This document shows, piece after piece, positions 1-51,616 of a stretch of 64,000 nt of DNA. Source of the DNA: a virus. The notes below the pieces were generated by a model. It was not told the origin of the DNA and made no database searches. It saw only the letters and a list, made by a program, of their open reading frames with translations. Both the position numbers and the translations under genes were made by a program. The stretch spans positions 1 through 64,000 of the IMG/VR virus record IMGVR_UViG_3300040801_001687; one strand, 5' to 3'. Each line of letters opens with the position of its first letter. Within the stretch, counting starts at the first letter, position 1.

Positions 1-64
1 AAATGTAGAGACCATACCAATCACCTTCACACCTAAACAAAAAGGCTCCGATGAAGAGACTTAA
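1..64 (+). CDS. 3' end of an ORF truncated by the window start (...NVETIPITFTPKQKGSDEET*)
   Basis: Open frame from 2 to TAA at 62-64, followed directly by a terminator hairpin. Confidence 0.5.
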   Translation, partial: NVETIPITFTPKQKGSDEET

Positions 65-71
65 TATTAAT

Positions 72-102
72 ACCCATAATTTTTATTGATTATGGGTTTT
101 TT
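72..102 (+). terminator. Rho-independent terminator
   Basis: Stem ACCCATAAT (72-80)/ATTATGGGT (89-97) followed by a T run. Confidence 0.7.
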
Positions 103-119
103 ATTTGAAATATTATTTC

Positions 120-127
120 TATATTTG
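120..127 (+). promoter_or_regulatory. Bacteroidota-type -7 promoter element TATATTTG
   Basis: Matches TAnnTTTG, 22 nt before ATG 150; no clean -33 TTG at the usual spacing. Confidence 0.55.
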
Positions 128-149
128 ATTAAATCAAAAATCAATCATT

Positions 150-425
150 ATGAAAAATCAAAATGAATTAGGAATCGAAGAGGAATTAGGAATGAATATA
201 AAAGATTATTCATTCATTAATAATTATGATGAATCTATAGGGTTTATAGAAATGAATGAAGGGTTAGCATTCCATAAAGATATGGATTTAGTTGTAGATA
301 GGCTGAATAAATCATATGTAGATGAAGCAATAGAAGGTAAGGGTTGGGAAGATTGGGAATATGACCTAGAAGGGCATAAATATAATCTTAAGTATAAAGA
401 GGATTTAAAAGGGTATATAGAATAA
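150..425 (+). CDS. Acidic hypothetical protein, early-type
   Basis: 91-aa ORF with A-rich leader; starts MKNQN like ORF 2875. Confidence 0.75.
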   Translation: MKNQNELGIEEELGMNIKDYSFINNYDESIGFIEMNEGLAFHKDMDLVVDRLNKSYVDEAIEGKGWEDWEYDLEGHKYNLKYKEDLKGYIE

Positions 426-437
426 AAATCAATAATT

Positions 438-767
438 ATGAAAACTTTCACAAAAGATGAATTTAACCAAAGGATAAAAGACCTTTGGGATGAAATGAAG
501 AAACCACACAATGAGATGGAGACACCTGCTGACCAGGTAAACTTTATATTGGAAGGGGAAATCATTGATGAAGCCGACAGGATAATGGGCGAAGGATATG
601 ATACATGGAACTTAATATCCATTATCATAAAGGATGCTAAACATCAAATCACATCAAGCGAATTATGCTCGATATTTGATGAAGGAAACCATTGCTTATC
701 CAATGGAACTATATTCTATGAGGATGAATATACCTACATACAATGGAGCAACAAAGGACACATTTAA
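438..767 (+). CDS. Acidic hypothetical protein
   Basis: 109-aa ORF with A-rich leader, followed by a hairpin. Confidence 0.75.
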   Translation: MKTFTKDEFNQRIKDLWDEMKKPHNEMETPADQVNFILEGEIIDEADRIMGEGYDTWNLISIIIKDAKHQITSSELCSIFDEGNHCLSNGTIFYEDEYTYIQWSNKGHI

Positions 768-775
768 ACCTTAAC

Positions 776-801
776 AGCCCTAAGGAATAACCTTAGGGCT
801 T
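776..801 (+). terminator. Perfect 10-bp hairpin, probable terminator
   Basis: AGCCCTAAGG-AATAA-CCTTAGGGCT; U-tail is weak. Confidence 0.55.
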
Positions 802-855
802 AACTGTGTTAACCTATCAAAAGACTATTACCAAAAAACAAATAAAAAAAAAACA

Positions 856-1623
856 ATGAGTACTAAAGGAAAGAAGAAGGAGAAGATTAAAAGAATACCA
901 AGAATCGCAGGCCTTACACAAAAGATGAAAGCCATTCACCTACAGAAAAACAAAAACAAGAAAAAAAGATTAAAGACTTCACTAAGGAATGAACTACTCA
1001 GAAGATATATAACGGAAGGATATTGCATTAACGGGATAAGGATGAATGTAGAAGAGGTATCTTTTTATCTTGGAGTTAGTTTAAGGGATGTAGTAAAAGG
1101 AATTAGTGATACTATGGCCACACTTTCAGGGCTAACGAAAGATGGAGGAATGGAGGAGGCTTATAGGGCGTTGTTGGCGATGGGGATTCAAAACTCACTA
1201 GCCGACCGAGGCCTAATACTTAACCAGGCCCAAGACCTTTTAAGGAGCCAGGGCAATCGCTACCAGCCTTTTTTATCAACAGCCGTGAACCAATCTCTTA
1301 AAAACCTAATGGATAGCCAGAAGCCTATTTTAGAATTAATTAAGGCCTTAAACCCACAAGGAGGTATCACTATTAATAATAATAACCAACAAGCTCAAGG
1401 GCAATATATGACTACTGCCGATGCTGTTAAAATGATAGACAAGAACAGGGAAGGCCTTTTACAATCTCCTGAGGCCCAACACCAACTGGGTGAATCCTAT
1501 GGGGTAAACGACCTTCCCGAGGTAATAGCTACCAAACAACGGGGCTTTAGGCTAGAGGACGATGCCATAATGGTTAAACAGTCCAAACCCACAGAACATG
1601 AAACTAGAAGAGAAAACGAATAA
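856..1623 (+). CDS. Hypothetical protein, possible terminase small subunit
   Basis: Basic N-terminus, HTH-like segment (NVEEVSFYLGVSLRDVVKGI), helical core and GGITINNNN beta segment, as seen in TerS proteins; no TerS candidate lies next to TerL. Confidence 0.4.
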   Translation: MSTKGKKKEKIKRIPRIAGLTQKMKAIHLQKNKNKKKRLKTSLRNELLRRYITEGYCINGIRMNVEEVSFYLGVSLRDVVKGISDTMATLSGLTKDGGMEEAYRALLAMGIQNSLADRGLILNQAQDLLRSQGNRYQPFLSTAVNQSLKNLMDSQKPILELIKALNPQGGITINNNNQQAQGQYMTTADAVKMIDKNREGLLQSPEAQHQLGESYGVNDLPEVIATKQRGFRLEDDAIMVKQSKPTEHETRRENE

Positions 1624-1916
1624 CCTATTACCCATACCTAATTACTTATATTCAACTTATCACTAAGGGGGAAATGCTCTTGATAATTTGTAGGTAGTAA
1701 GGTATGGGTTCTTTGTGTAGGTAGTTATTTCTTTTGTTTTGGGTACCTTAATGCCTTTACCTAAGAGTAGAAGGCCTCATACCTTAAATCTTATACACTA
1801 TATATAATTACCATAGCAGGTATCAGGCTTTCATGGCCTACAACCTTTACATCTAGGCCTTGATGGCCAGGTGCCAACAATCAAAAATAAAAAGAATATG
1901 GCCAATGATTAAAATG

Positions 1917-1947
1917 TTGCAAATGGTTTTTATTGTTCCTAAATTTG
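1917..1947 (+). promoter_or_regulatory. Bacteroidota sigma-70-type promoter
   Basis: TTG (1917-1919)-N20-TAAATTTG (1940-1947). Confidence 0.75.
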
Positions 1948-1977
1948 AAATATCAATTAATCAAAAAATATATAGAT

Positions 1978-2259
1978 ATGAATTATTTAGATCAAATAGA
2001 AAGAATCGAGACTACAACGGAATTACTAAATTCCATACGAAAAGAAAAAGGCCTTCATCCAAAAGATTCTTATAAATTGGGATTTCTAAAAACCTTAATG
2101 CAAGGCTTTGATGATAGAGCCGATATTGAAAATATTCTAAAGGCTATAGATGAAATGCGAAAGGAATTTTCCTTATTACATAAATTGATGCTGATAGAGG
2201 ATTACGAAAGCTCAAATGAGATTACTGACGAAGATGCTAGTACTCTTAAAGAACTTTAA
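1978..2259 (+). CDS. Hypothetical protein (start moved from TTG 1933 to ATG 1978)
   Basis: The TTG start overlaps the promoter; ATG 1978 follows an A-rich leader (MNYLDQ...). Confidence 0.7.
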   Translation: MNYLDQIERIETTTELLNSIRKEKGLHPKDSYKLGFLKTLMQGFDDRADIENILKAIDEMRKEFSLLHKLMLIEDYESSNEITDEDASTLKEL

Positions 2260-2299
2260 TAAGGAAATCAATTAATCAATATACTAAAATCACTAGACA

Positions 2300-2581
2300 A
2301 TGGAAAATTCAAGAACACTAATTTTAAGAAACAGAAAGAAAGAAATTGCCCAAATTGCTAAAAGCCTAAACCCTAAGGCCTTACCCAAAGACCCTAGGCA
2401 CCTTAGATACCTTGCTTCCCTAAGGCTTACCCTTGGCATTAAGAAAGATGAGGTATCAGATGAAGCCTTAATGACCTTTATAAGAAGAAGCCATAAGGCT
2501 AAGGAAGAAATAAAGACTACACAGATATACAAAGGCCTTAGACATTTAACATCTAAAGACCTTATTGCCATGATTGATTGA
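2300..2581 (+). CDS. Basic hypothetical protein
   Basis: 93-aa ORF with AATCAA-rich leader and downstream terminator. Confidence 0.65.
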   Translation: MENSRTLILRNRKKEIAQIAKSLNPKALPKDPRHLRYLASLRLTLGIKKDEVSDEALMTFIRRSHKAKEEIKTTQIYKGLRHLTSKDLIAMID

Positions 2582-2595
2582 TGGTTGATTGGATT

Positions 2596-2617
2596 GCCCT
2601 TCGGGGCTTTCTTTTTT
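2596..2617 (+). terminator. Rho-independent terminator with UUCG tetraloop
   Basis: GCCC-TTCG-GGGC followed by TTTCTTTTTT. Confidence 0.75.
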
Positions 2618-2803
2618 GATGTAAGTATTGGGCCTTAATGGCCTTAAACCTTAAAATGTTCCACTAGAATACCTTATACAATACATATATATAATTGCCA
2701 TAGCAGGCCCAATCCGCAGGTAGACTGGAATCTTTGGGGGAAATTTGGGGAAAAATGATGGATTTTTTGCCGAGAAAAAAGATAAAAAATAATTGCAGAA
2801 TAT

Positions 2804-2834
2804 TTTGCAGAATGATTTTTTATATATAGATTTG
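2804..2834 (+). promoter_or_regulatory. Consensus Bacteroidota promoter
   Basis: TTTG (2804-2807)-N19-TAGATTTG (2827-2834). Confidence 0.8.
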
Positions 2835-2874
2835 CATATATCAAAATCAATTAATTAATCAAAAATCAAAAATC

Positions 2875-3384
2875 ATGAAAAATCAAAATCAAAAAATCGA
2901 AGAGAAAAAAGGAAATCAATCAAAAGAAAATCAGATTGATAAAAAGAATTTGAATAATATCAAATTTGATTTAGGGAAAGGAAATTCTGAATTATGCAAT
3001 AAGGAAATGAAAATTTCCTTTAATAAAGGAATTTATAAGGATGAATTAATGAAAGAATTATCATCCGATGAGAGAAAGAAATTCCGAGGAAAGATAAGAA
3101 GAGATTTAAAGAGATTCATTTCCAATATATTAGGGAAAGATAGAAATGATTATGAAAGGATTTCTTCTTTATTTGCATTTATTTCTTTCTATCAAAAATA
3201 TTGGAGGATTCAAGATTTAAAGATTGAGAATTTTTCATCTTCAAGAAATGAAAAGGATTTAAAGGATTATAAGGATTTATTATCTTATATCGAATCATTG
3301 ATGCAAGGAAATAAAATAAATTCATTAGATGCAATGAAAGAGATATTAAATAATCAATTAAATGCAATGCAGGATAAAGGATAA
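2875..3384 (+). CDS. Hypothetical protein lacking Thr, Val, Pro and His
   Basis: 169-aa ORF with its own promoter and terminator, entirely inside the AC/GT-free segment. Confidence 0.8.
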   Translation: MKNQNQKIEEKKGNQSKENQIDKKNLNNIKFDLGKGNSELCNKEMKISFNKGIYKDELMKELSSDERKKFRGKIRRDLKRFISNILGKDRNDYERISSLFAFISFYQKYWRIQDLKIENFSSSRNEKDLKDYKDLLSYIESLMQGNKINSLDAMKEILNNQLNAMQDKG

Positions 3385-3409
3385 TTAATTAATCCTTATT
3401 CATGAATAT

Positions 3410-3455
3410 ATGAGAAATCAGATGGATTATCCCCCATTCGATTTCTCATTTTTTT
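3410..3455 (+). terminator. Rho-independent terminator
   Basis: ATGAGAAATC (3410-3419)/GATTTCTCAT (3440-3449) followed by a T run. Confidence 0.75.
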
Positions 3456-3594
3456 ATCCTCCTTCCACACCAAGCCCCTCTTGCACCACCCGGACCTCCC
3501 GTATGAGACCCAAAACCCATCAGGTATAGGCCCATAATTTAAAGAAGCCAACCCAAACACTCGGGGGTTCCCAGGCTATACTATAAAAACACAT

Positions 3595-3630
3595 AAAAAA
3601 GGCCTATATAAAAAATATATAAGCCCTTTC
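3595..3630 (-). terminator. Probable terminator of the leftward operon
   Basis: A run then GGCCTATATA...TATATAAGCC hairpin, downstream of minus-strand ORF 3649. Confidence 0.5.
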
Positions 3631-3648
3631 CCATGATAGACCCAAGCC

Positions 3649-3915
3649 TTAATCCCCAGGCCCAGAAGCAGTACCTTCCTTAACCCCACCCTTAGCAGGT
3701 GTAATATCCAGGTAATACTCTTCACCTTCAATAAAAATATTAGATGCAAGAGTACCTTTACTTATATCTAATACCAAGTTACCCGAAGGTGTGTATTTAG
3801 AGAAACTATTATTCTCCTCATTACCATCAATTAAAGCTACAAATGAAGCCTGAATAATTTCATTCTCTTGCTCCATTAATCTTTGACATATAAATTTTGC
3901 TCTTACTGTACTCAT
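3649..3915 (-). CDS. Small beta-rich phage protein, paralogue of 4121-4396
   Basis: VRAKF...FSKYTPSG...FIEGEEYYLDITP. Confidence 0.75.
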   Translation of the reverse strand: MSTVRAKFICQRLMEQENEIIQASFVALIDGNEENNSFSKYTPSGNLVLDISKGTLASNIFIEGEEYYLDITPAKGGVKEGTASGPGD

Positions 3916-3917
3916 AA

Positions 3918-4109
3918 TTATATATGGGTTTTACTAAGCCCTCCCAAGGCCTTATTATCTTTATTAATTGGAAGCCTATCATAGCATTCCTTAGAACATA
4001 CTATAGGTTCTGTAGGTAATCCTAAACATCCACAATCTCTACCCGAGCAACACATCTTAGGTTCTTCTCCTTCAAACTCCTTACCACATACTTGACAATT
4101 TAATTTCAT
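3918..4109 (-). CDS. Cys-rich small protein, putative zinc-binding
   Basis: 8 Cys in 63 aa (CxxC...CC...CxC...CxxxC). Confidence 0.7.
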   Translation of the reverse strand: MKLNCQVCGKEFEGEEPKMCCSGRDCGCLGLPTEPIVCSKECYDRLPINKDNKALGGLSKTHI

Positions 4110-4120
4110 AACTTTTATCT

Positions 4121-4396
4121 TTATCCTGGCCTATTATCTAAATCCTCATCAAAGGGTGTACCCATTACTGCTGAATCTTTATTAAGGCCTCTACTATTAA
4201 CCGGGTCAATAGAAAGGTAATACTCTTGGCCTTCTTTAAAAGGTTCAATTCCAGCATTAGCATCTGATACTACTACTTGTAGGCTTAAGGGTTTAGATTC
4301 ATCCTTATTCTCATCAACAGGCCTAAATCTAAAAACAACAATCCCATATTGGGGCTCATCCTGTTTACTTACACATTCCATTTTAATCTTTTCCAT
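4121..4396 (-). CDS. Small beta-rich phage protein, paralogue of 3649-3915
   Basis: KIKMEC...FKEGQEYYLSIDP. Confidence 0.7.
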   Translation of the reverse strand: MEKIKMECVSKQDEPQYGIVVFRFRPVDENKDESKPLSLQVVVSDANAGIEPFKEGQEYYLSIDPVNSRGLNKDSAVMGTPFDEDLDNRPG

Positions 4397-4407
4397 AACT
4401 CTATAAT

Positions 4408-4719
4408 TTAAAATGCTTCTACTTTAAAGACCTTCTTTTTATATAAAGGCCTTAATGATACTTGGTTTTTCCTAAGGTGTAAGGTATCACCTTTATCATA
4501 ATAGGCCTCATAGTATCTTATATAATACTCTCTAGTGTTTTCAATATCTTTTAAATCATATCTTATCATTCTTTCCCCTTCTTTATGGACTTGAGTGATT
4601 AAATACTCCTTAGAGCATCCCGAAAGAGTGATTATCAATAAGATTATTAAGATAGTAAAAATAATTGCATCAAAGCGGGATTGGTTACCCTGTGGTCTAG
4701 TTCCGTTTCTATAGTTCAT
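4408..4719 (-). CDS. Putative lipoprotein
   Basis: Hydrophobic stretch ending in lipobox LSG-C. Confidence 0.65.
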   Translation of the reverse strand: MNYRNGTRPQGNQSRFDAIIFTILIILLIITLSGCSKEYLITQVHKEGERMIRYDLKDIENTREYYIRYYEAYYDKGDTLHLRKNQVSLRPLYKKKVFKVEAF

Positions 4720-4880
4720 CTTTTTTTATCTTTAGGAAATAATAATGCTATGGGTTTACCCTTATCCCATAATACTCTACAGTTAAAGTGTCTTGATATA
4801 TACCAACCATTAAACTCCTTTAATTCATCGGGGTCCATGTAACCCTTAATAAAATTTATAATATCTTTTGACCTACTCAT
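4716..4880 (-). CDS. Hypothetical 54-aa protein, not in the ORF track
   Basis: MSRSKDIINFIKGYMDPDELKEFNGWYISRHFNCRVLWDKGKPIALLFPKDKKR*; ATGA overlap with the next gene; fills the operon gap. Confidence 0.7.
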   Translation of the reverse strand: MSRSKDIINFIKGYMDPDELKEFNGWYISRHFNCRVLWDKGKPIALLFPKDKKR

Positions 4881-4882
4881 CT

Positions 4883-5140
4883 TTATCTGAAGTTGAAGTT
4901 ATAATAAATAATAGCTCCTAATAATATCCCAAAAACTATAGTCCAAATTATAAACATAACCCATAGAATATTATTTCTATACTCTAAGTGGGGTTTTCTT
5001 AATTTATTATCATTATAAAACCCTGACATCTTATCTGCCCATTCTTTTTCTTTCCAAGTCTTTATTATAGACTTACCTATTATAACAAATCCCATAATAA
5101 AGGGTATAGATAATAATGATATAAATATTAATAAAGCCAT
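4883..5140 (-). CDS. Two-TM membrane protein
   Basis: Two hydrophobic segments. Confidence 0.7.
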   Translation of the reverse strand: MALLIFISLLSIPFIMGFVIIGKSIIKTWKEKEWADKMSGFYNDNKLRKPHLEYRNNILWVMFIIWTIVFGILLGAIIYYNFNFR

Positions 5141-5142
5141 AA

Positions 5143-5658
5143 TTAAAACCTTTTAATATTTGATAAATCCTTAATACCTGACCAAATCCCCAATAATTCT
5201 ATATGGTGTCTTTCCTTTTCCAATATAAAGGTATCAAATATACTTTGGTATTTGGGTATAAAATATTCATTGACTTTACTAAATAAATTACTATAAATAT
5301 CATCAGCATATTCTATCTTATGGTGGCCATCTAATTTATCAATATTTTTATTAAACTCCAATTCAGGAAATATATCATTTAATTTATACCCATAATTTAC
5401 TTCTATGGGTTTTTTATAGGATATAACCTTATAATAAAAATTTGATACTACCATGGGGTTATATAATACAGATAAACCCAACCCATATTTAATATTATTC
5501 CTTATATCTAGTGAAGAGATAAATGATACTTCGGATAAATCCACATAATTATCATCTATTGTCACTAGGGAATCCCTTTTATTGCCTCTTTGAGATTCTA
5601 ATACTCCTTTGATTAATTGAAGTTGTTTAATAATCTCATTAGCTGTTAATTCTTTCAT
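5143..5658 (-). CDS. Hypothetical protein
   Basis: 171-aa ORF in a tightly packed operon. Confidence 0.7.
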   Translation of the reverse strand: MKELTANEIIKQLQLIKGVLESQRGNKRDSLVTIDDNYVDLSEVSFISSLDIRNNIKYGLGLSVLYNPMVVSNFYYKVISYKKPIEVNYGYKLNDIFPELEFNKNIDKLDGHHKIEYADDIYSNLFSKVNEYFIPKYQSIFDTFILEKERHHIELLGIWSGIKDLSNIKRF

Positions 5659-5846
5659 ATTCCAAAAATTAAAATGTAAGACATATACCCGGTTACAATT
5701 AAACCTAATATATTTAAAACTATATAATACCTAAAAGCTTCTTCAGTGTAGGTTTCTCTAAAAGTATAAAGGGTGGCTATATTAACTATGGATAAAATAA
5801 ACAATGCAACCATTAACCCAGTAAAAGTTGTTAATATCCAGCTCAT
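5655..5846 (-). CDS. Two-TM small membrane protein
   Basis: Hydrophobic, with 4-nt overlaps at both ends. Confidence 0.7.
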   Translation of the reverse strand: MSWILTTFTGLMVALFILSIVNIATLYTFRETYTEEAFRYYIVLNILGLIVTGYMSYILIFGI

Positions 5847-6205
5847 AATTCTTCTGTTTGTTCTTCATCAGTTAAAACTCTAGTTACCCAAATATAATTA
5901 ACTTCTTTTTTATATTGGGTCTTTAATGTATACCTAAATAAATTTAAAGCATTCCAAAATATTATATTTTTATAATCTTTATCAAAAAACTCATTTATGT
6001 AGGCATACCTAAAACTAGGAGTGTATATTTGTCCTCTATCTATTCTTGAAGCAAAGGATAAAGCTATACCCTCATCAATATCTTCAATTTTATAAATACC
6101 CTCCACTGAAAGGTTTCCATGACCTTTAAATTTTTTGTGGAAGGTTTCATAGGTTTTCTTGTTTATGGGTATTATATCCCAACCGTTTAATTATATTGAT
6201 TCCAT
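5843..6205 (-). pseudogene. Hypothetical gene interrupted by an in-frame TAA at codon 5 (or a sequence error); alternative GTG start at 6106
   Basis: ATG 6205 has a good A-rich leader and is in frame with GTG 6106; reads MESI*LNGWDIIPINKKTY... Confidence 0.55.
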
Positions 6206-6231
6206 ATTATTGTTTAAATGGTTAATAAAAT

Positions 6232-6261
6232 AAAACCCCCACAACTAAAGAGGGGTTTTTT
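6232..6261. terminator. Terminator-like hairpin, potentially bidirectional
   Basis: AAAACCCC(C)...GGGGTTTTTT. Confidence 0.6.
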
Positions 6262-6330
6262 AATTTCAAATTAATAGGTTATACTCAAAACCCAGTTATA
6301 AAGAACTCTTAGTTGATTTCTTTTGATATT

Positions 6331-6361
6331 CAAAAATAGTCAATTATATATTAAAATGCAA
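6331..6361 (-). promoter_or_regulatory. Bacteroidota-type promoter, leftward
   Basis: Minus strand TTG-N20-TATTTTTG. Confidence 0.7.
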
Positions 6362-6395
6362 CATTTATCTTATTGGCCAAGAAAATTGTAGACAC

Positions 6396-6427
6396 AAAAA
6401 AAATCGGAAGGTAATCACTCCTTCCGA
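6396..6427 (-). terminator. Rho-independent terminator, minus strand
   Basis: TCGGAAGG/CCTTCCGA stem with an A run on its left. Confidence 0.65.
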
Positions 6428-6551
6428 CTCCAATTAATCAAATAATCATTAATCATTAATTAAAATTTACCGAGCATAAATTCAATAATAATGAAAGAAT
6501 CATAATTAAATAGTCACTTAGGTTAACTATTTTAATCACCACTAGCAAATC

Positions 6552-6902
6552 TTATGCTCCATAGTTACTCACCTCTTCCATTAAAAACTGATAATTTACT
6601 TTATCTTTGGGTAATTGGAATATAATATTAACATGGGTGGATAATTCTTTACCTGATTTAGAATGGTTATGGTGAACTTCCCACCTTTTATAATTAGGTA
6701 ATCGTTTAAAGAAAGAAGTAGCGGGGAAATACCTAAATTCATAGGGTTTTAAGAAAATCCTAATAAAGCAATACTTATCTCTATCAGAATTCATACCTAT
6801 ACCCCATTTATAATTATGCTTCCTTAGGAGGTTAATAAACTCCTTATTATTAGCTAAATCATGGCTAATGCTTTCTAAAGTTTTTTCTAGGTTGGGATTC
6901 AT
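6552..6902 (-). CDS. Hypothetical protein
   Basis: 116-aa ORF, stop/start overlap with the upstream gene. Confidence 0.7.
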   Translation of the reverse strand: MNPNLEKTLESISHDLANNKEFINLLRKHNYKWGIGMNSDRDKYCFIRIFLKPYEFRYFPATSFFKRLPNYKRWEVHHNHSKSGKELSTHVNIIFQLPKDKVNYQFLMEEVSNYGA

Positions 6903-7396
6903 TATTCCGAGAATTTTGATATTAGATATCTTTTAAGCTCTATTCTATCCTCCTCTGAAAGGTATTCTTTAGATTTAGCCTTTAAATCTATATGAACAAT
7001 TTTATCTAAAGGTATTTCAGTACTTTCCAATAATTCTCTAGCCTCATCACTACCTTTTTCCTTGAATATTTGTACATACTTATTGGGTTTAATATATTCA
7101 GGAATAAATAAAACATCGGCTATATTACCTGAACTTAGCCTTACATTTTTAAATAGCCAATGAGAGGATAATTTAAAAGTAATATCATTATAGAAGCCCG
7201 ATTCACTGGATTTAGTTAAATCATTTCTTTTGGGTTTAATTATCTTATCGGGTAATATCCCATTAGCATCTTTTAATACTAATACCCAAAATTGGTTTTC
7301 ATTAATGTAATCGGCTTTATATTCCCATTTAGGCCAAAATTTAACGGATACCATTTTGATTATCCATAATTTGATTTTTTGAATAATTTTCTTCAT
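6902..7396 (-). CDS. Hypothetical protein
   Basis: 164-aa ORF. Confidence 0.7.
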   Translation of the reverse strand: MKKIIQKIKLWIIKMVSVKFWPKWEYKADYINENQFWVLVLKDANGILPDKIIKPKRNDLTKSSESGFYNDITFKLSSHWLFKNVRLSSGNIADVLFIPEYIKPNKYVQIFKEKGSDEARELLESTEIPLDKIVHIDLKAKSKEYLSEEDRIELKRYLISKFSE

Positions 7397-7430
7397 AGTT
7401 TTCGAGTTTAAATGAAAATAGTATTAATTA

Positions 7431-7601
7431 TTATTCTGAATACCTACCTCTAATAAAAGATACTAGATTTATACATCCAAGTAATAAACATAATCTCATA
7501 TAAACCCAAAATGGTAAACCCCAAATTGTAAAGAGAAAAGCAAATACCATTATAAAATGTAACCAATATAACCCTCTATTAAACTTTTGTAGGTCATTCA
7601 T
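7431..7601 (-). CDS. Small two-TM membrane protein, 56 aa, not in the ORF track
   Basis: MNDLQKFNRGLYWLHFIMVFAFLFTIWGLPFWVYMRLCLLLGCINLVSFIRGRYSE*. Confidence 0.55.
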   Translation of the reverse strand: MNDLQKFNRGLYWLHFIMVFAFLFTIWGLPFWVYMRLCLLLGCINLVSFIRGRYSE

Positions 7602-7611
7602 ACAATACTTA
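7602..7611 (+). promoter_or_regulatory. Putative phage late promoter motif ACAATACTTA
   Basis: Same 10-mer upstream of genes at 7649, 16905, 22710 and 23167. Confidence 0.6.
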
Positions 7612-7648
7612 TTTATATTTCAAAAATTAAATAGTAACCCTTAAAAAA

Positions 7649-8641
7649 ATGAGTATATTAGCAATATGTGGAGGTAACGGAGTATTAGCTCACCCCTTCA
7701 AGAAACACTTAATAGGGAATATAGAGCCTAGAACTGTATTTCATACTCCTGACCACATCCAATGGAGGCTTAATTTTAATATCCCGTTTGATAAAGACCC
7801 TTTAGTTAGGTTTCCAAAATCAGATGTAAGTATTATAGTGGGAGCACCGGATTGTGGCCACTCTTCCGTATTAGCTTATTCAAGAGCTAAAAAACTATCG
7901 GACCCCAAATTAAACACATCCTTAAGTTTATACCTTGAAAACGTTGACTATTATAGGCCTGAAATCTTTATGATGGAGAACTTACCTAAGCTTTTAGAAT
8001 CCGATAAAACTATTATACCTTTTTTTGAATCACTAGGTTATAGGGTATTTATTTATGAGGAACCCGTATCGGCTTGGGGAAATTCTCAAATAAATAGAAA
8101 AAGGCTTATAATAATTGGTATATCTAAAAACCTTAAAAACAAAAAGAAATATTTTAGGTTACCAAAAGAAAGGTACCTTAAGAGCTCTGGTGAACTTATA
8201 GAAGGTTTGGGTAAAGAAGAGATACCTGAATTATGTCATGTAAGGGAATTAGATGATTGGAGGCTTCCAATGTATTATGGTGATGAGAGAAATATAAGTG
8301 TTAAGCAGGCTAGAAATTTATGGAAGCAGTATGGTACTAGAAAATGGCCAGTACCTAATTCAAAAATGAATAATCAACCAGGGGTATATAGAAACCTAGA
8401 TTCTGATTACCCAATGACTGTAAGAAAACAATCTAGGCAATTCAGAGAGGATGGATACCTTCTTACACCAAGGGAAATGGCTAGAATTCAAGGTGTACCT
8501 GATAATTTTAAATTACACTTTGAAGAAGATAGAAGGCTTTACTTTATTAATAAAGCTAGAGCAACTGTAACAAAATGTCCACCTTATCAAATAGGTGAGT
8601 GGTTTAATAAATGTTTAATTAAAATGAATTATTATGGATAA
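7649..8641 (+). CDS. DNA (cytosine-5) methyltransferase
   Basis: Motif I-like CGGNG, motif IV GAPDC, motif VI MENL, motif VIII QxNRKR, motif IX LTPREMARIQG. Confidence 0.9.
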   Translation: MSILAICGGNGVLAHPFKKHLIGNIEPRTVFHTPDHIQWRLNFNIPFDKDPLVRFPKSDVSIIVGAPDCGHSSVLAYSRAKKLSDPKLNTSLSLYLENVDYYRPEIFMMENLPKLLESDKTIIPFFESLGYRVFIYEEPVSAWGNSQINRKRLIIIGISKNLKNKKKYFRLPKERYLKSSGELIEGLGKEEIPELCHVRELDDWRLPMYYGDERNISVKQARNLWKQYGTRKWPVPNSKMNNQPGVYRNLDSDYPMTVRKQSRQFREDGYLLTPREMARIQGVPDNFKLHFEEDRRLYFINKARATVTKCPPYQIGEWFNKCLIKMNYYG

Positions 8642-9349: not shown

Positions 9350-10066
9350 ATGAAAACCTGGATTAACCCACAAAACGTATTATTGGCCATATTAATAATT
9401 ATGGTTACAATATTCTGGCTAGATAGAAAAGGCCAAGATGAGATTGCTAAAGAGTATTGGGAAAACCCAAACTTTAAAACCGATTCAATAAAGGTTTACA
9501 TTGATTATGATAAATTACCAAAACCCCAATATACTAATTATGTTCCCCCTGCAGTAAACATAAAATATATTGATCCCACAAAATCCTATAAGACGACGCA
9601 AGTTATAAAAAATGATTCTTTACTATTGATTATTGATTCCATGAGGGATGAGTTCACTAGAATCTCTCTTAGGTATCTCAAAAATAATCCTGAAGCATGG
9701 AAGATACTCTATGGAGAATTTAACTCAGATACAGTATCATTTGACATGGTAAACCTTGAGGGAAACACTATTACCGATAAGTATGCAGTTAACTTCAATA
9801 GGTTTAAATATCAATTAGTATACAATGAGGGAAGGCCAATTTTTAAAGCATCTTCACCTATTCAATCAGATTTTAATAACAAAGACCCATTATCACATGA
9901 ATTTTATGTAGCACCAGGGTATATGCTTTTAAGAAAAAGCCCTTCAGTAGGTCTTGATTATAACGCAAAGTGGAGGAATTTAAGATTTAGAGCTGATGGT
10001 ACTATTTCAATCGAAACAAATCCACAGTTATTCTTTAAAGTAGACGCAGGTTATAAAATATGGTAA
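9350..10066 (+). CDS. Membrane protein next to the endolysin; candidate spanin-like lysis protein
   Basis: N-terminal TM helix; C-terminal amphipathic beta strands ending in GYKIW. Confidence 0.5.
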   Translation: MKTWINPQNVLLAILIIMVTIFWLDRKGQDEIAKEYWENPNFKTDSIKVYIDYDKLPKPQYTNYVPPAVNIKYIDPTKSYKTTQVIKNDSLLLIIDSMRDEFTRISLRYLKNNPEAWKILYGEFNSDTVSFDMVNLEGNTITDKYAVNFNRFKYQLVYNEGRPIFKASSPIQSDFNNKDPLSHEFYVAPGYMLLRKSPSVGLDYNAKWRNLRFRADGTISIETNPQLFFKVDAGYKIW

Positions 10067-49237: not shown

Positions 49238-49929
49238 GAAAACAAGATTATTTTCAAAAAGGAGAGATTACTAATGCTATTATAGAGTTATCTAAAATAA
49301 GGGTATACCAAGAAGGTAACTTAAATAGTGAGCTACGGCTTATATTAGAGGCCTTTATAAAAAAGTCAGTAAAATTTAATAACACTTACCAAGAAGCTAT
49401 TGAATTTATTAATAGTGTTAATTTTCTTGAACTGGAGAATCAGGTTAAGGTATTTAATAAGATAAAACAATTAAACCTTCAATTTAAAGCTATTATTATA
49501 GATTTATTTTCAATATTCGGTTTAACTAATAAGAACTCTGATGATTTAATAATACCTATTAAAAAACACCTAGATGGTGCAGGTATAACTTCAACATTCT
49601 ACTTCCCAGGTGATGTATTAAAAACAATGATAACCTATATTAATTACATCCAACTAAATGATGAGAGGACTAGGTTACCCAAAACAAAATTATATAAATT
49701 TGATGTGGGGGATGAACCTTTCGGATTTACTAGGTTAAGTGAAGAGGTGTTAATGATAAATAATGGTTTGTTTTTAGAAATAATTCAATCAGTATACCTT
49801 ATGATTGATAAGGAGGAGCAAGTTGTTTATAAAGAGGATTTAACTGCTGACCTATTATTTAGAATTTCAGAATTTTTAAGCTTTAATGATTTTGATAATT
49901 TAAAACTTTATAACCTAATAAGGAAATGA
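49234..49929 (+). CDS. Hypothetical helical protein
   Basis: 231 aa, coupled to the TS-like genes. Confidence 0.7.
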   Translation: MRKQDYFQKGEITNAIIELSKIRVYQEGNLNSELRLILEAFIKKSVKFNNTYQEAIEFINSVNFLELENQVKVFNKIKQLNLQFKAIIIDLFSIFGLTNKNSDDLIIPIKKHLDGAGITSTFYFPGDVLKTMITYINYIQLNDERTRLPKTKLYKFDVGDEPFGFTRLSEEVLMINNGLFLEIIQSVYLMIDKEEQVVYKEDLTADLLFRISEFLSFNDFDNLKLYNLIRK

Positions 49930-50849
49930 ATAAAATTACAGACAGTGATTCAGGAATAGTAACCACATTAAAATACCCTAATCTACAAAAAGGTTGGGAG
50001 GGTATTAATGAATTTCTATTTTTAGAGGCTGATAGAATAGCTGAAAATTCAGGGGGAGTCCATGGACCAGAGATGGTATCCTATAATAATTTTGTAGTTA
50101 TGGATAAAGCTTGGGTAGACCCTGAGTTTAATTTCGGAAAGGTATTAGGGTATTCAATAGCTAAATGGTCAGCCTTAGTAAATAATTATGTAGACTTTTA
50201 TTACCTTGATTTATTAAGAGCTGAAATAAGCAGAAGAGTTAAATCAAAAGCAAGAGCCTATAACTATACTTACCACTTTGATAATAAACATGGGGGAGGT
50301 AAAGACTGCTTAGTTGCAATCACTTTTACAAAAAGGATGTTCTCAAGGCGACCAGTTGTAGTATTTCAAATAAGAACTTCTGAAGTAACTAAAAGGTTAC
50401 TCTTTGATTTCTTACTAGTACAGAGGATAACAGAGTATATTTATGGACATAATGATGTGGAAGTGCACTTTTTTGCTCCATCCTATTATGTTACACGGGA
50501 ATCATTTGTAATGTATAATAATGTAAAATCAATAAAGAAGCTTTACAAAAACCATATTAGGAAAAATGGTAAACCTTTACCTGATAATCAGAAGTTTCAA
50601 AAGAAAGTAAAAGAAACCTTTAAAGAATACATGAACCACCCTGACCCCATGAGTGTAATGTATAGAGTTAACAGACGCTCAATGATGCAAATCCAAAAGG
50701 ATGAAAATGGGGAACCTATATCAGGTGTTAAAGATTTATTTGCTAAGGATTTAAAACTTAGAGAAGAGAATGATAACTTACCTAAAGATGTAATATCACC
50801 ATCAAAGGTAAGGGGTTATAAAAGAATCCAAAAAAACAAAAAGAAATGA
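49926..50849 (+). CDS. Divergent thymidylate-synthase-fold protein
   Basis: KDCL..ITF corresponds to the PC motif; RTSEVTKRLLFD aligns with RSxD.......N/D. Confidence 0.6.
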   Translation: MNKITDSDSGIVTTLKYPNLQKGWEGINEFLFLEADRIAENSGGVHGPEMVSYNNFVVMDKAWVDPEFNFGKVLGYSIAKWSALVNNYVDFYYLDLLRAEISRRVKSKARAYNYTYHFDNKHGGGKDCLVAITFTKRMFSRRPVVVFQIRTSEVTKRLLFDFLLVQRITEYIYGHNDVEVHFFAPSYYVTRESFVMYNNVKSIKKLYKNHIRKNGKPLPDNQKFQKKVKETFKEYMNHPDPMSVMYRVNRRSMMQIQKDENGEPISGVKDLFAKDLKLREENDNLPKDVISPSKVRGYKRIQKNKKK

Positions 50850-51616
50850 ATACTATAATAAAAAACCAACAGAAACAACTATACCATGTTGGCCAAAAAT
50901 ACTCAGTAGAGAAATGGCAGGGGGTGGATTCACCTGATGATATGATTGAATTGTTAAACCAAAGGGTAGTTATAGATACTTCTTTATTGAAAAATAAGTT
51001 AGAAGAGGAAATAAAACCCCACTTACCTTGGGCTGAACTTCAATTCCAAGAAAGGGTATCGGGTAAACCCTTAAACCCCGGTGAATCTTATAAAGAATGG
51101 CCTTTTTATAAACACAAAAAAGAGGATGATAAATTTAGAAATACAGAAGAAGGCCAATTCAGTCACACCTATATGGAGAGGTTTTGGCCAAAGCAAGCCC
51201 CCATGTTTAATGGTAGAATTAATGCAGATATAAATATAGGTATAAGGTATGGATATGGGGACCTTGATGATTTAATTCAACTACTAATGGACCAACCCCA
51301 TACAAGGCAAGCTTTCTTACCTATCTGGTTTCCCGAAGATTTAAAGGCATCAAATTTAGGTGATAGAGTTCCATGTTCATTGGGTTATGATTTCATTATA
51401 AGAAACAATAGACTTCACATGGTTTATTATATGAGGTCATGCGATGCCCTTAGACATTTTAGAGATGATATTTATATAGCCATTAGGTTGATGCAATGGG
51501 TATGCCAAGAGTTAAATATGTTACATGACATAGATACTGGGATGTTCACTATGTATATTAAGAATTTCCACTGTTTCTATAAAGAAAGAGAAAGTTTACT
51601 ATCAGATAAATTTTAA
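50846..51616 (+). CDS. Thymidylate synthase/dCMP hydroxymethylase family protein with Asp at the specificity position
   Basis: TRQA...IW.P.D, VPCS, MRSCDALRHFRDD, NFH. Confidence 0.88.
   Translation: MNTIIKNQQKQLYHVGQKYSVEKWQGVDSPDDMIELLNQRVVIDTSLLKNKLEEEIKPHLPWAELQFQERVSGKPLNPGESYKEWPFYKHKKEDDKFRNTEEGQFSHTYMERFWPKQAPMFNGRINADINIGIRYGYGDLDDLIQLLMDQPHTRQAFLPIWFPEDLKASNLGDRVPCSLGYDFIIRNNRLHMVYYMRSCDALRHFRDDIYIAIRLMQWVCQELNMLHDIDTGMFTMYIKNFHCFYKERESLLSDKF

Follow-up and report, generated by a model that had tools for sequence, protein, structure and literature searches.

Anatomy of an AC/GT-free transcription unit

The window analyzed here, positions 1 to 64,000 (64,000 nucleotides) of IMG/VR virus record IMGVR_UViG_3300040801_001687, carries at 2725 to 3467 one self-contained transcription unit (here called the cassette), located between the end of a long plus-strand gene block and the end of a minus-strand block. 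The source is a 77,187-bp contig from a microbial-mat metagenome, with ends overlapping by 117 bp (an assembly circle). Its gene content includes TerL and a contractile-tail structural module, along with a T4-like replication/recombination set comprising a DnaB-type helicase, primase, UvsW, gp32, UvsX/RecA, UvsY-like and gp46/47-like proteins, PolA, and a 5′-3′ exonuclease. For about 30 small genes, no family could be assigned.

On the left, the cassette is preceded by a repeated element of ~80 bp on the plus strand, with a first copy at 1743 to 1820 and a second at 2633 to 2707, ending in TATATATAATTrCCATAGCAGG. Given that the AC/GT-free segment begins ~18 bp beyond the end of the second copy, we regard that copy as a left boundary marker. 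Two TTTGGGG direct repeats (2733 to 2750, plus strand) make up the G tracts of the left edge, upstream of the promoter, and are followed by two operator-like TTGCAGAAT direct repeats (2793 to 2813, plus strand) that overlap a −33 TTTG (2804 to 2807, plus strand). A spacing of 19 bp separates the latter from the −7 box, TAGATTTG (2827 to 2834, plus strand), a perfect match to TAnnTTTG that lies 102 bp inside the segment. By the −33/−7 consensus of Bacteroides promoters, TTTG-N19-TAGATTTG is a Bacteroidota-type promoter. Strict matches to this consensus number 11 in the genome; the cassette promoter is one of them and is intergenic, with a gene 40 nt downstream. The intervening 40-nt leader (2835 to 2874, plus strand; AATCAAAAATCAAAAATC) is A-rich and without a Shine-Dalgarno sequence, and the cassette open reading frame (ORF; 2875 to 3384, plus strand) has 169 codons encoding a basic, helical protein that lacks Thr and Val and has 3 Ala residues. 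Downstream is an intrinsic terminator (3412 to 3455, plus strand) with the stem GAGAAATC/GATTTCTC in a hairpin at 3412 to 3447 and then a run of seven T residues, and the AC/GT-free segment ends 12 bp past this run. A right-bounding block conserved across loci (3467 to 3500; TCCTCC..CACAC/CACCGTGTGCC) begins where the purge stops and, in the form found in the related locus L003 (CTCACCGTGTACGG), may resemble the left end of T7. Rfam and tRNA scans of the flanks returned no match.

Over the 743 bp that separate the AC at 2724-2725 from that at 3467-3468, neither AC nor GT occurs. One would expect 65 such steps at the rate seen across the window (0.0877 per position, which gives a gap this long a chance of ~e^-68) and 66.5 given the base composition of the segment itself. 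A first-pass annotation made from the letters alone had reported this 743-bp absence and predicted 60 to 80 steps, both of which hold up, while its by-eye estimate of ~30% GC was too high: the segment measures 24.9% GC versus 32.6% for the genome. Per-gene observed/expected ratios for AC/GT across the genome have a median of 0.79, with 0.00 for the ORF at 2875 to 3384 and 0.36 for the next lowest gene, and the lowest AC/GT count in any 743-bp window elsewhere in the genome is 38.

A dinucleotide count over the whole 77,187-bp genome left this segment, hereafter the desert, unmatched. The runners-up are gaps of 230 bp (65252 to 65482) and 146 bp (96 to 242), and we rejected the former as a comparable desert because it is trivial, arising in a GAT/GAG acidic repeat. 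Deserts scattered across the genome, which the first-pass annotation held would count against specific selection, are limited to the 146-bp stretch. This second, small stretch (96 to 242, plus strand) is without AC, GT, or GC and covers a promoter-like region, a leader, and the first ~31 codons of an ORF at 150 to 425. Its leader is identical to that of the cassette and, together with an MKNQN start, lies at 132 to 167.

The absence of AC and GT in the desert holds in coding and noncoding DNA and in all codon phases, spanning promoter, leader, gene, and terminator, and its edges are sharp. The constraint works symmetrically on duplex DNA and not on protein or codons, in agreement with the first-pass annotation, which had also described the sharp boundaries. 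Loss of Thr and Val from the cassette protein follows from loss of AC and GT steps on both strands.

This extent bears on an explanation at the level of RNA, in which a transcript without sites for a MazF (ACA/UAC)- or MqsR (GCU)-type endoribonuclease would be the sole message spared by an RNase of host or phage origin. "ACA-less" messages that escape MazF are a known principle, and AC-containing and GCU motifs are all missing from the mRNA; however, their complements, GU and AGC, are purged equally, and the purge begins ~100 bp ahead of the −7 box and continues past the terminator, outside the transcript. In the partly depleted relatives, AC and GT are both reduced on the sense strand, with L004 keeping them about evenly (8 versus 7), although L007 keeps 9 AC versus 3 GT. 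Altogether, we consider selection on the message very improbable.

Deserts in relatives and a wider rule

Three relatives whose proteins are only ~45 to 63% identical have deserts of their own. In L001, a 76-kb IMG/VR phage whose cassette protein is 50% identical, a 770-bp desert contains two promoters, a small membrane ORF, the homologue, and a terminator. The desert of L099, a 79.6-kb phage with a cassette protein from another clade of the family, is 784 bp long, and that of L003 covers at least 1,147 bp and three genes, with three "leaks." Desert length increases with the number of cassette genes, from one gene in 743 bp through two genes in 770 and 784 bp to three genes in at least 1,147 bp. 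In three loci, the desert extends from ~75 to 110 bp upstream of the −7 box to ~12 to 25 bp beyond the terminator, which is roughly the DNA touched by RNA polymerase.

The first-pass annotation had reasoned that relatives carrying the same gene with normal AC/GT content would argue against specific selection. L001, L003, and L099 are purged, whereas distant homologues at the same syntenic spot (L013, L021, L024, and L030) are not depleted in AC/GT. Phages with TerL at 69 to 71% identity and a C5-cytosine methyltransferase (MTase) at 50 to 56% identity (this genome, L001, L099, and L007) all purge the cassette (4/4; L007 partly), while none of 17 relatives with TerL at 52 to 64% identity does so; in these, each with upstream sequence of 6 kb or more, no AC/GT gap exceeds 133 bp. 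Judged by TerL and MTase identity, the purge tracks phage lineage.

The avoided steps are not limited to AC and GT. All 10 GC steps in the desert are TGC, 9 of them TGCA and 1 TGCC, and AGC/GCT is missing, as the first-pass annotation had noticed. Elsewhere in the genome, 10% of GC sites read TGCA, which gives P = 1.2e-8 for 9 of 10. The Ala codon GCT, the commonest in the genome (59%), is unused in the segment, and its three Ala codons are all GCA. Counted as strand readings of GC, GCA makes up 19 of 20 in this desert and 13 of 14 in that of L001, against a background of 0.30. The L003 desert has 0 GC versus 12.4 expected, TGCA is found at 7 of 11 GC sites in the L099 desert, and the partly purged cassette ORF of L007 has TGCA, TGCC, or GGCA at 12 of 14 GC sites. 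Since GC is purged alongside AC/GT unless both strands read GCA, what is avoided is the step purine-C (R-C), or equivalently G-pyrimidine (G-Y), on either strand, with TGCA as the sole exemption. A rule of AC/GT absence, as formulated in the first-pass annotation, is therefore correct as far as it goes and too narrow. The deserts are without AC/GT, and that of L003 is also without GC, whereas those of this genome, L001, and L099 tolerate TGCA.

Extent, relatives, and GC contexts together bear on the model put forward in the first-pass annotation, a direct terminal repeat devoid of primase sites (template 5′-GYN) on both strands, in which the 3′ ends would remain single-stranded along the full repeat and anneal or invade to form concatemers. 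T4 primase sites are GTT and GCT and the T7 primase site is GTC. Although the forbidden G-Y steps take in all of these, the purge goes beyond any such trinucleotide: each of the four GTN contexts is missing and GCA is spared, and we know of no primase specificity that predicts loss of GTN with retention of GCA. That exemption instead matches a published methyltransferase specificity, discussed below. Sharp edges, motif arrays on both flanks, and a location at the strand switch between gene blocks would all suit a chromosome end, yet desert length (743 to at least 1,147 bp) tracks the one to three cassette genes, whereas a repeat would be defined by packaging signals, and a second mini-desert at 96 to 242 lies over the promoter and start of a different gene that has the same leader. 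An all-or-none purge suits a single-site effect, and the T4-like set for recombination-dependent replication is encoded; however, the purge is patchy among phages that have this primase, with 17 relatives of the same primase lineage (41 to 54% identity) showing no desert within the syntenic 6 to 10 kb, the trait follows one gene family over at least 3, and about 9, transitions, and the three leaks in L003 would defeat a design that prevents priming. We thus find the terminal-repeat model unsupported and consider it improbable.

Sequencing data for this genome consist of Logan contigs only, at ~5 to 9×, from one microbial-mat sample. One Logan contig bridges both desert boundaries, as expected with or without a terminal repeat, and a 157-nt contig inside the right end of the desert has a word depth about that of its neighbors, although such depths are not comparable.

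A discrete state in one protein family

The 169-amino-acid cassette protein had no match in Pfam, PHROGs, or PADLOC, and fold searches (Foldseek PDB, BFVD, and VIA wide) returned only generic helical bundles and uncharacterized myovirus proteins. No match was obtained in a blastn search of positions 1 to 8000 against the INPHARED phage collection, in an IMG/VR scan with the cassette protein alone, or in a scan with alignment A6. A scan of genome contigs likewise yielded no cellular homologue and, with it, no clue to the host.

We took a census of the family by a profile search of 1.84 billion representative proteins, which yielded 172 members, and analyzed 166 sequences. Both Thr and Val are entirely absent from 23 of these 166 representatives. 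Only two others have 3% Thr+Val or less (2.5% and 2.9%), and the rest range from ~3 to 20%, with a median of 9.3%. This bimodal distribution indicates that the purge is a discrete, all-or-none state. On a tree of 99 family members, the state requires 9 changes, with well-supported branches alone forcing at least 3; label shuffling gave a mean of 19.3 changes, and 0 of 500 shuffles were as low as 9. Since shared composition may draw purged sequences together, the figure of 9 is more likely too low than too high. Branches leading to purged lineages are long in the family tree, as would be expected if a rule on DNA forces change in the protein. A state that is all-or-none fits an agent for which one site is fatal to the unit, and together with its recurrence and its conservation despite sequence divergence, the bimodal pattern points to a single-hit selective agent.

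It could instead be proposed that a local mutational process, such as deamination of cytosine in particular contexts (AC becoming AT, on either strand) across a unit under heavy transcription, removed these steps without selection. The segment lies ~57 G+C below the prediction from the genome average, which is near the ~65 missing steps, and replacements of Val by Ile and of Thr by Ile or Ser predominate. Such a process would have to account for an erasure that is perfect and sharp edged and that left ORF, promoter, and terminator intact, in a genome in which every other gene has an observed/expected ratio of at least 0.36. It would also have to account for maintenance of the state across 50% protein divergence, its bimodality in 166 representatives, and the precise exemption of TGCA. 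We think it extremely improbable that mutation alone produced the desert.

Modification genes in the phage genome

Two enzymes encoded by this phage may be relevant to a modification of its pyrimidines. The first is the C5-cytosine DNA methyltransferase (7649 to 8641, plus strand; PF00145, E = 1e-20), with intact PDCG and ENL motifs and M.HaeIII as its nearest solved relative. Its gene adjoins the packaging genes and is intact in this genome and in all purging relatives, including L007, which we had entertained as a natural methyltransferase knockout and rejected because its gene is intact with a GTG start. By its sequence, this enzyme is a candidate writer of a mark in GC contexts. The second is a thymidylate synthase (TS)-fold enzyme (50846 to 51616, plus strand) with a cytosine-type Asp where ThyA has Asn177 and the CMP 5-hydroxymethylase MilA as its best solved match; the module in which it lies also includes a dCMP deaminase, a P-loop kinase, and a MazG-like NTPase.

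Searches for other modifying enzymes were negative. A six-frame search for DpdA/TGT (PF01702) found no match, with controls positive in 14 of 14 genomes, and 7-deazaguanine was rejected as the mark on account of this missing gene. A six-frame search for TET/JBP (PF12851) also found no match, under a weak control: a single genome of the 14 used as controls gave a match, below the cutoff, and a divergent enzyme may thus have been missed. A G-5-methylpyrimidine dioxygenase would unify the GT and GC rules, and gene support for one is absent here.

Several observations run against a DNA mark as the reason for the purge. No enzyme marking AC/GT was identified among the genes. Genome-wide observed/expected ratios for AC/GT and for GC are no different in phages that purge and phages that do not, and a palindrome test gave only a weak, GATC-dominated trend. 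Non-purging relatives, too, have the methyltransferase and the TS-fold enzyme with its Asp, and neither presence nor absence of the TS-fold enzyme, its Asp, the primase, or the methyltransferase sorts the two groups. As a result, the modification toolkit alone does not explain which phages purge; only differences in the target recognition domain (TRD) and in identity correlate. L004 and L007, as cases of intermediate purge, also fit a mark less well.

A proposed mark-free cassette

Weighing these observations, we give an even chance to the reading that selection keeps out of the cassette those short contexts in which DNA of this lineage is given a C5-pyrimidine mark, or in which such a mark is recognized. 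AC, GT, and GCB contexts would be the sites of the phage mark, or of its reading; we infer the marking itself from what is avoided, and a 5-substituted cytosine from the C5-methyltransferase and the TS-fold enzyme with its cytosine-type Asp. In this scheme, selection would strip purine-C steps from the duplex of a host-promoter-driven, probably immediate-early cassette, leaving it as the sole mark-free stretch of the phage chromosome. The benefit could be of two kinds. McrBC cleaves DNA close to R-5mC/5hmC elements, which it reads in either strand (PMC3874153), and an unmarked cassette would escape binding or cutting by a modification-dependent host nuclease of this kind. Unmodified host RNA polymerase might also transcribe an unmarked cassette without delay. 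Global replacement of cytosine would fit less well, because an McrBC-type reader would then leave the TGCA exemption unexplained and the methyltransferase would be without a substrate. The first-pass annotation had named two alternatives to its own model, clearing of defense motifs and removal of a context-specific base modification from the first-expressed gene, and both are close to the reading preferred here.

Published phage enzymes make contexts this short plausible. Phage C5-methyltransferases specific for GpC[C/T] or GpC[C/T/G], with GpCA not targeted, have been described (Burke et al. 2021, PMC8256090), and post-replicative modification and oxidation of pyrimidines at the dinucleotide contexts NTC and NTG is known from other phages (PMC13229309). 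Slightly short of even, in our estimate, is the chance that these phages form a lineage of T4-like-replicating, Bacteroidota-type myoviruses that has an undescribed mark or reader at R-C/G-Y steps and a dedicated unmarked early cassette.

The main rival to a phage mark is a host reader of unmodified DNA. A short-motif nuclease, nickase, glycosylase, or base-modifying enzyme could read or damage G-pyrimidine/purine-C steps independently of any phage mark, and the cassette, perhaps encoding a countermeasure, would survive intact long enough for expression. This proposal is also in keeping with the anatomy of the cassette and with its symmetric, all-or-none purge, and the patchy, recurrent distribution resembles that of an arms-race trait. 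By analogy, early DNA of T5 and T7 can lack sites, and this phage clearly uses site avoidance against at least one system, with GATC occurring 3 times versus 211 expected. However, we know of no defense that reads a bare dinucleotide. GATC is normal in L001, so that its avoidance differs between phages that share the purge, which tracks TerL/MTase lineage and not host-specific signals. The remaining genome, rich in these steps, would still be open to attack, and the GCA exemption has a precedent in phage methyltransferases (PMC8256090). We therefore regard a host defense directed at unmodified DNA as unlikely.

Relation to known systems and significance

The first-step-transfer (pre-early) region of T5 and the early region of T7 with gene 0.3 (Ocr) are short, driven by host-type promoters, expressed first, and lacking in sites found elsewhere in the same genomes. 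The cassette is similar in being a unit with a promoter for host RNA polymerase and 0 of ~65 expected steps, versus an observed/expected ratio of 0.79 genome-wide. It differs in that the sites avoided in T5 and T7 are specific 4- to 8-bp restriction sites, while here a whole dinucleotide class is avoided on both strands at the cost of Thr and Val. Furthermore, the T5 and T7 regions act before other DNA is exposed, whereas first entry of 2725 to 3467 is only hypothetical. To our knowledge, motif avoidance in phages, although well known, has been described only for specific restriction sites.

Type IV restriction by McrBC (PMC3874153) provides a second comparison. The R-C step that McrBC reads on either strand corresponds to the forbidden set here (AC, GT, and GC) apart from TGCA, a dinucleotide suffices, and both 5mC and 5hmC are substrates of McrBC; the TGCA exemption seen here distinguishes this case from Escherichia coli McrBC, and modification of the DNA of this phage is putative. 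The pathway of Burke et al. 2021 (PMC8256090) likewise includes a phage C5-methyltransferase, and GCA, which escapes that enzyme, is near enough (with one TGCC) the only GC context left in the deserts. Unlike that pathway, we found no TET partner or glycosyltransferase in this genome, and AC/GT is left unexplained. Other phages carry post-replicative marks at di- or trinucleotide contexts across the genome, among them preQ0 at two motifs in CAjan (PMC7544227) and the products of T-dioxygenases (PMC13229309). CAjan differs from this phage, which has no DpdA/TGT gene, and a mark-free gene island is not described in PMC7544227 or PMC13229309. A full-text literature search found no published phage gene island free of a dinucleotide step.

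What is new here is the erasure of a whole class of dinucleotide steps from one transcription unit, with the loss of two to three amino acids from its protein. Being all-or-none and having arisen repeatedly, this erasure points, from sequence alone, to a short-context mark or reader undescribed for these phages. If this reading is true, the cassette would be the first case of an epigenetic or defense constraint that limits the amino acid alphabet of a gene (no Thr, no Val, and Ala only as GCA). Transitions of this state within the one family number at least 3 and, by the best tree, about 9. The signature also singles out the gene most likely to be needed before the mark/reader system acts. Proteins free of Thr and Val and islands free of R-C may thus provide a computable handle for finding such systems in metagenomes.

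Putative regulatory elements of the desert and its relatives

An approximately 80-bp element is repeated at positions 1743-1820 and 2633-2707 of the window (CCTTAATG..ACCTTA..TATATATAATTrCCATAGCAGG), with its copies standing ahead of ORF 1933-2259 and of the AC/GT-free desert (2725-3467), respectively, and it may represent a phage-specific promoter or regulatory site. Three small genes of the window begin with a common A-rich leader and start, AAAAATCAxxxATTATGAAAA, encoding MKNQN... (132-167, 424-444, and 2857-2892). The same A-rich leader, followed by an MKNQ/MENQ start, precedes the cassette genes of the desert-bearing relatives L001 and L003.

Inside the desert of relatives, the homologue of the 169-aa cassette protein is preceded by a small membrane ORF (single-pass, about 40 to 75 aa) that has its own promoter copy (L001, 9790-9990; L003, about 560-700; L099, about 9800-10000; also L004, L006, and L007); the window's own cassette has no membrane ORF. 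Palindromic operator-like sites overlap the promoters, reading GGATAATCC in L001 and L003 and TCGGAT..ATCCGA in L099, and are found again in the terminators.

Sequences flanking the desert

A block adjoining the terminator (3467-3600, minus strand; TCCTCC..CACCGTGTGCC..GCGAG..ACTCCTAAGG) is also conserved in the right flanks of L001, L003, L007, and L099. On the minus strand it presents GGAGGA and then a short ORF extending into the terminator hairpin. Both flanks of the desert are rich in GGCC, which is enriched ~5-fold over positions 900-4600 (28 of the 127 genomic sites within 3.7 kb); the observed/expected ratio is 1.39 genome-wide. Many of these clustered sites read AAGGCCTTA or GGCCTTA and lie within genes, on both strands. 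Possibilities for the clusters are protein-binding sites or sites for a methyltransferase.

Other genes, genome ends, and GATC depletion

Outside the window, a 157-aa protein (65097-65570 of the whole-genome contig) contains a pure Asp/Glu tract of ~75 residues; the tract is encoded by a (GAT/GAG)n repeat, which accounts for a 230-bp AC/GT gap. Upstream of the thymidylate-synthase-fold gene (50846-51616, plus strand), a 307-aa ORF (49926-50849) had no sequence match in Pfam or PDB and gave only a weak thymidylate synthase lead in a protein-atlas search (10% of one cluster); it may be a second, divergent enzyme of that fold. The two ends of the contig share a 117-bp overlap (1-117 = 77071-77187), which lies within coding sequence and is an assembly-circle signature. 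In IMG/VR-style labelling this overlap counts as "direct terminal repeats", but it is uninformative on the real termini.

Across the whole genome, GATC occurs only 3 times (at 1990, 9572, and 73628) versus 211 expected, a near-loss not found in the relatives L001, L007, and L031. Such depletion implies that a GATC-specific restriction system in the host exerts strong pressure on this phage and that GATC in phage DNA is left unprotected by any modification.
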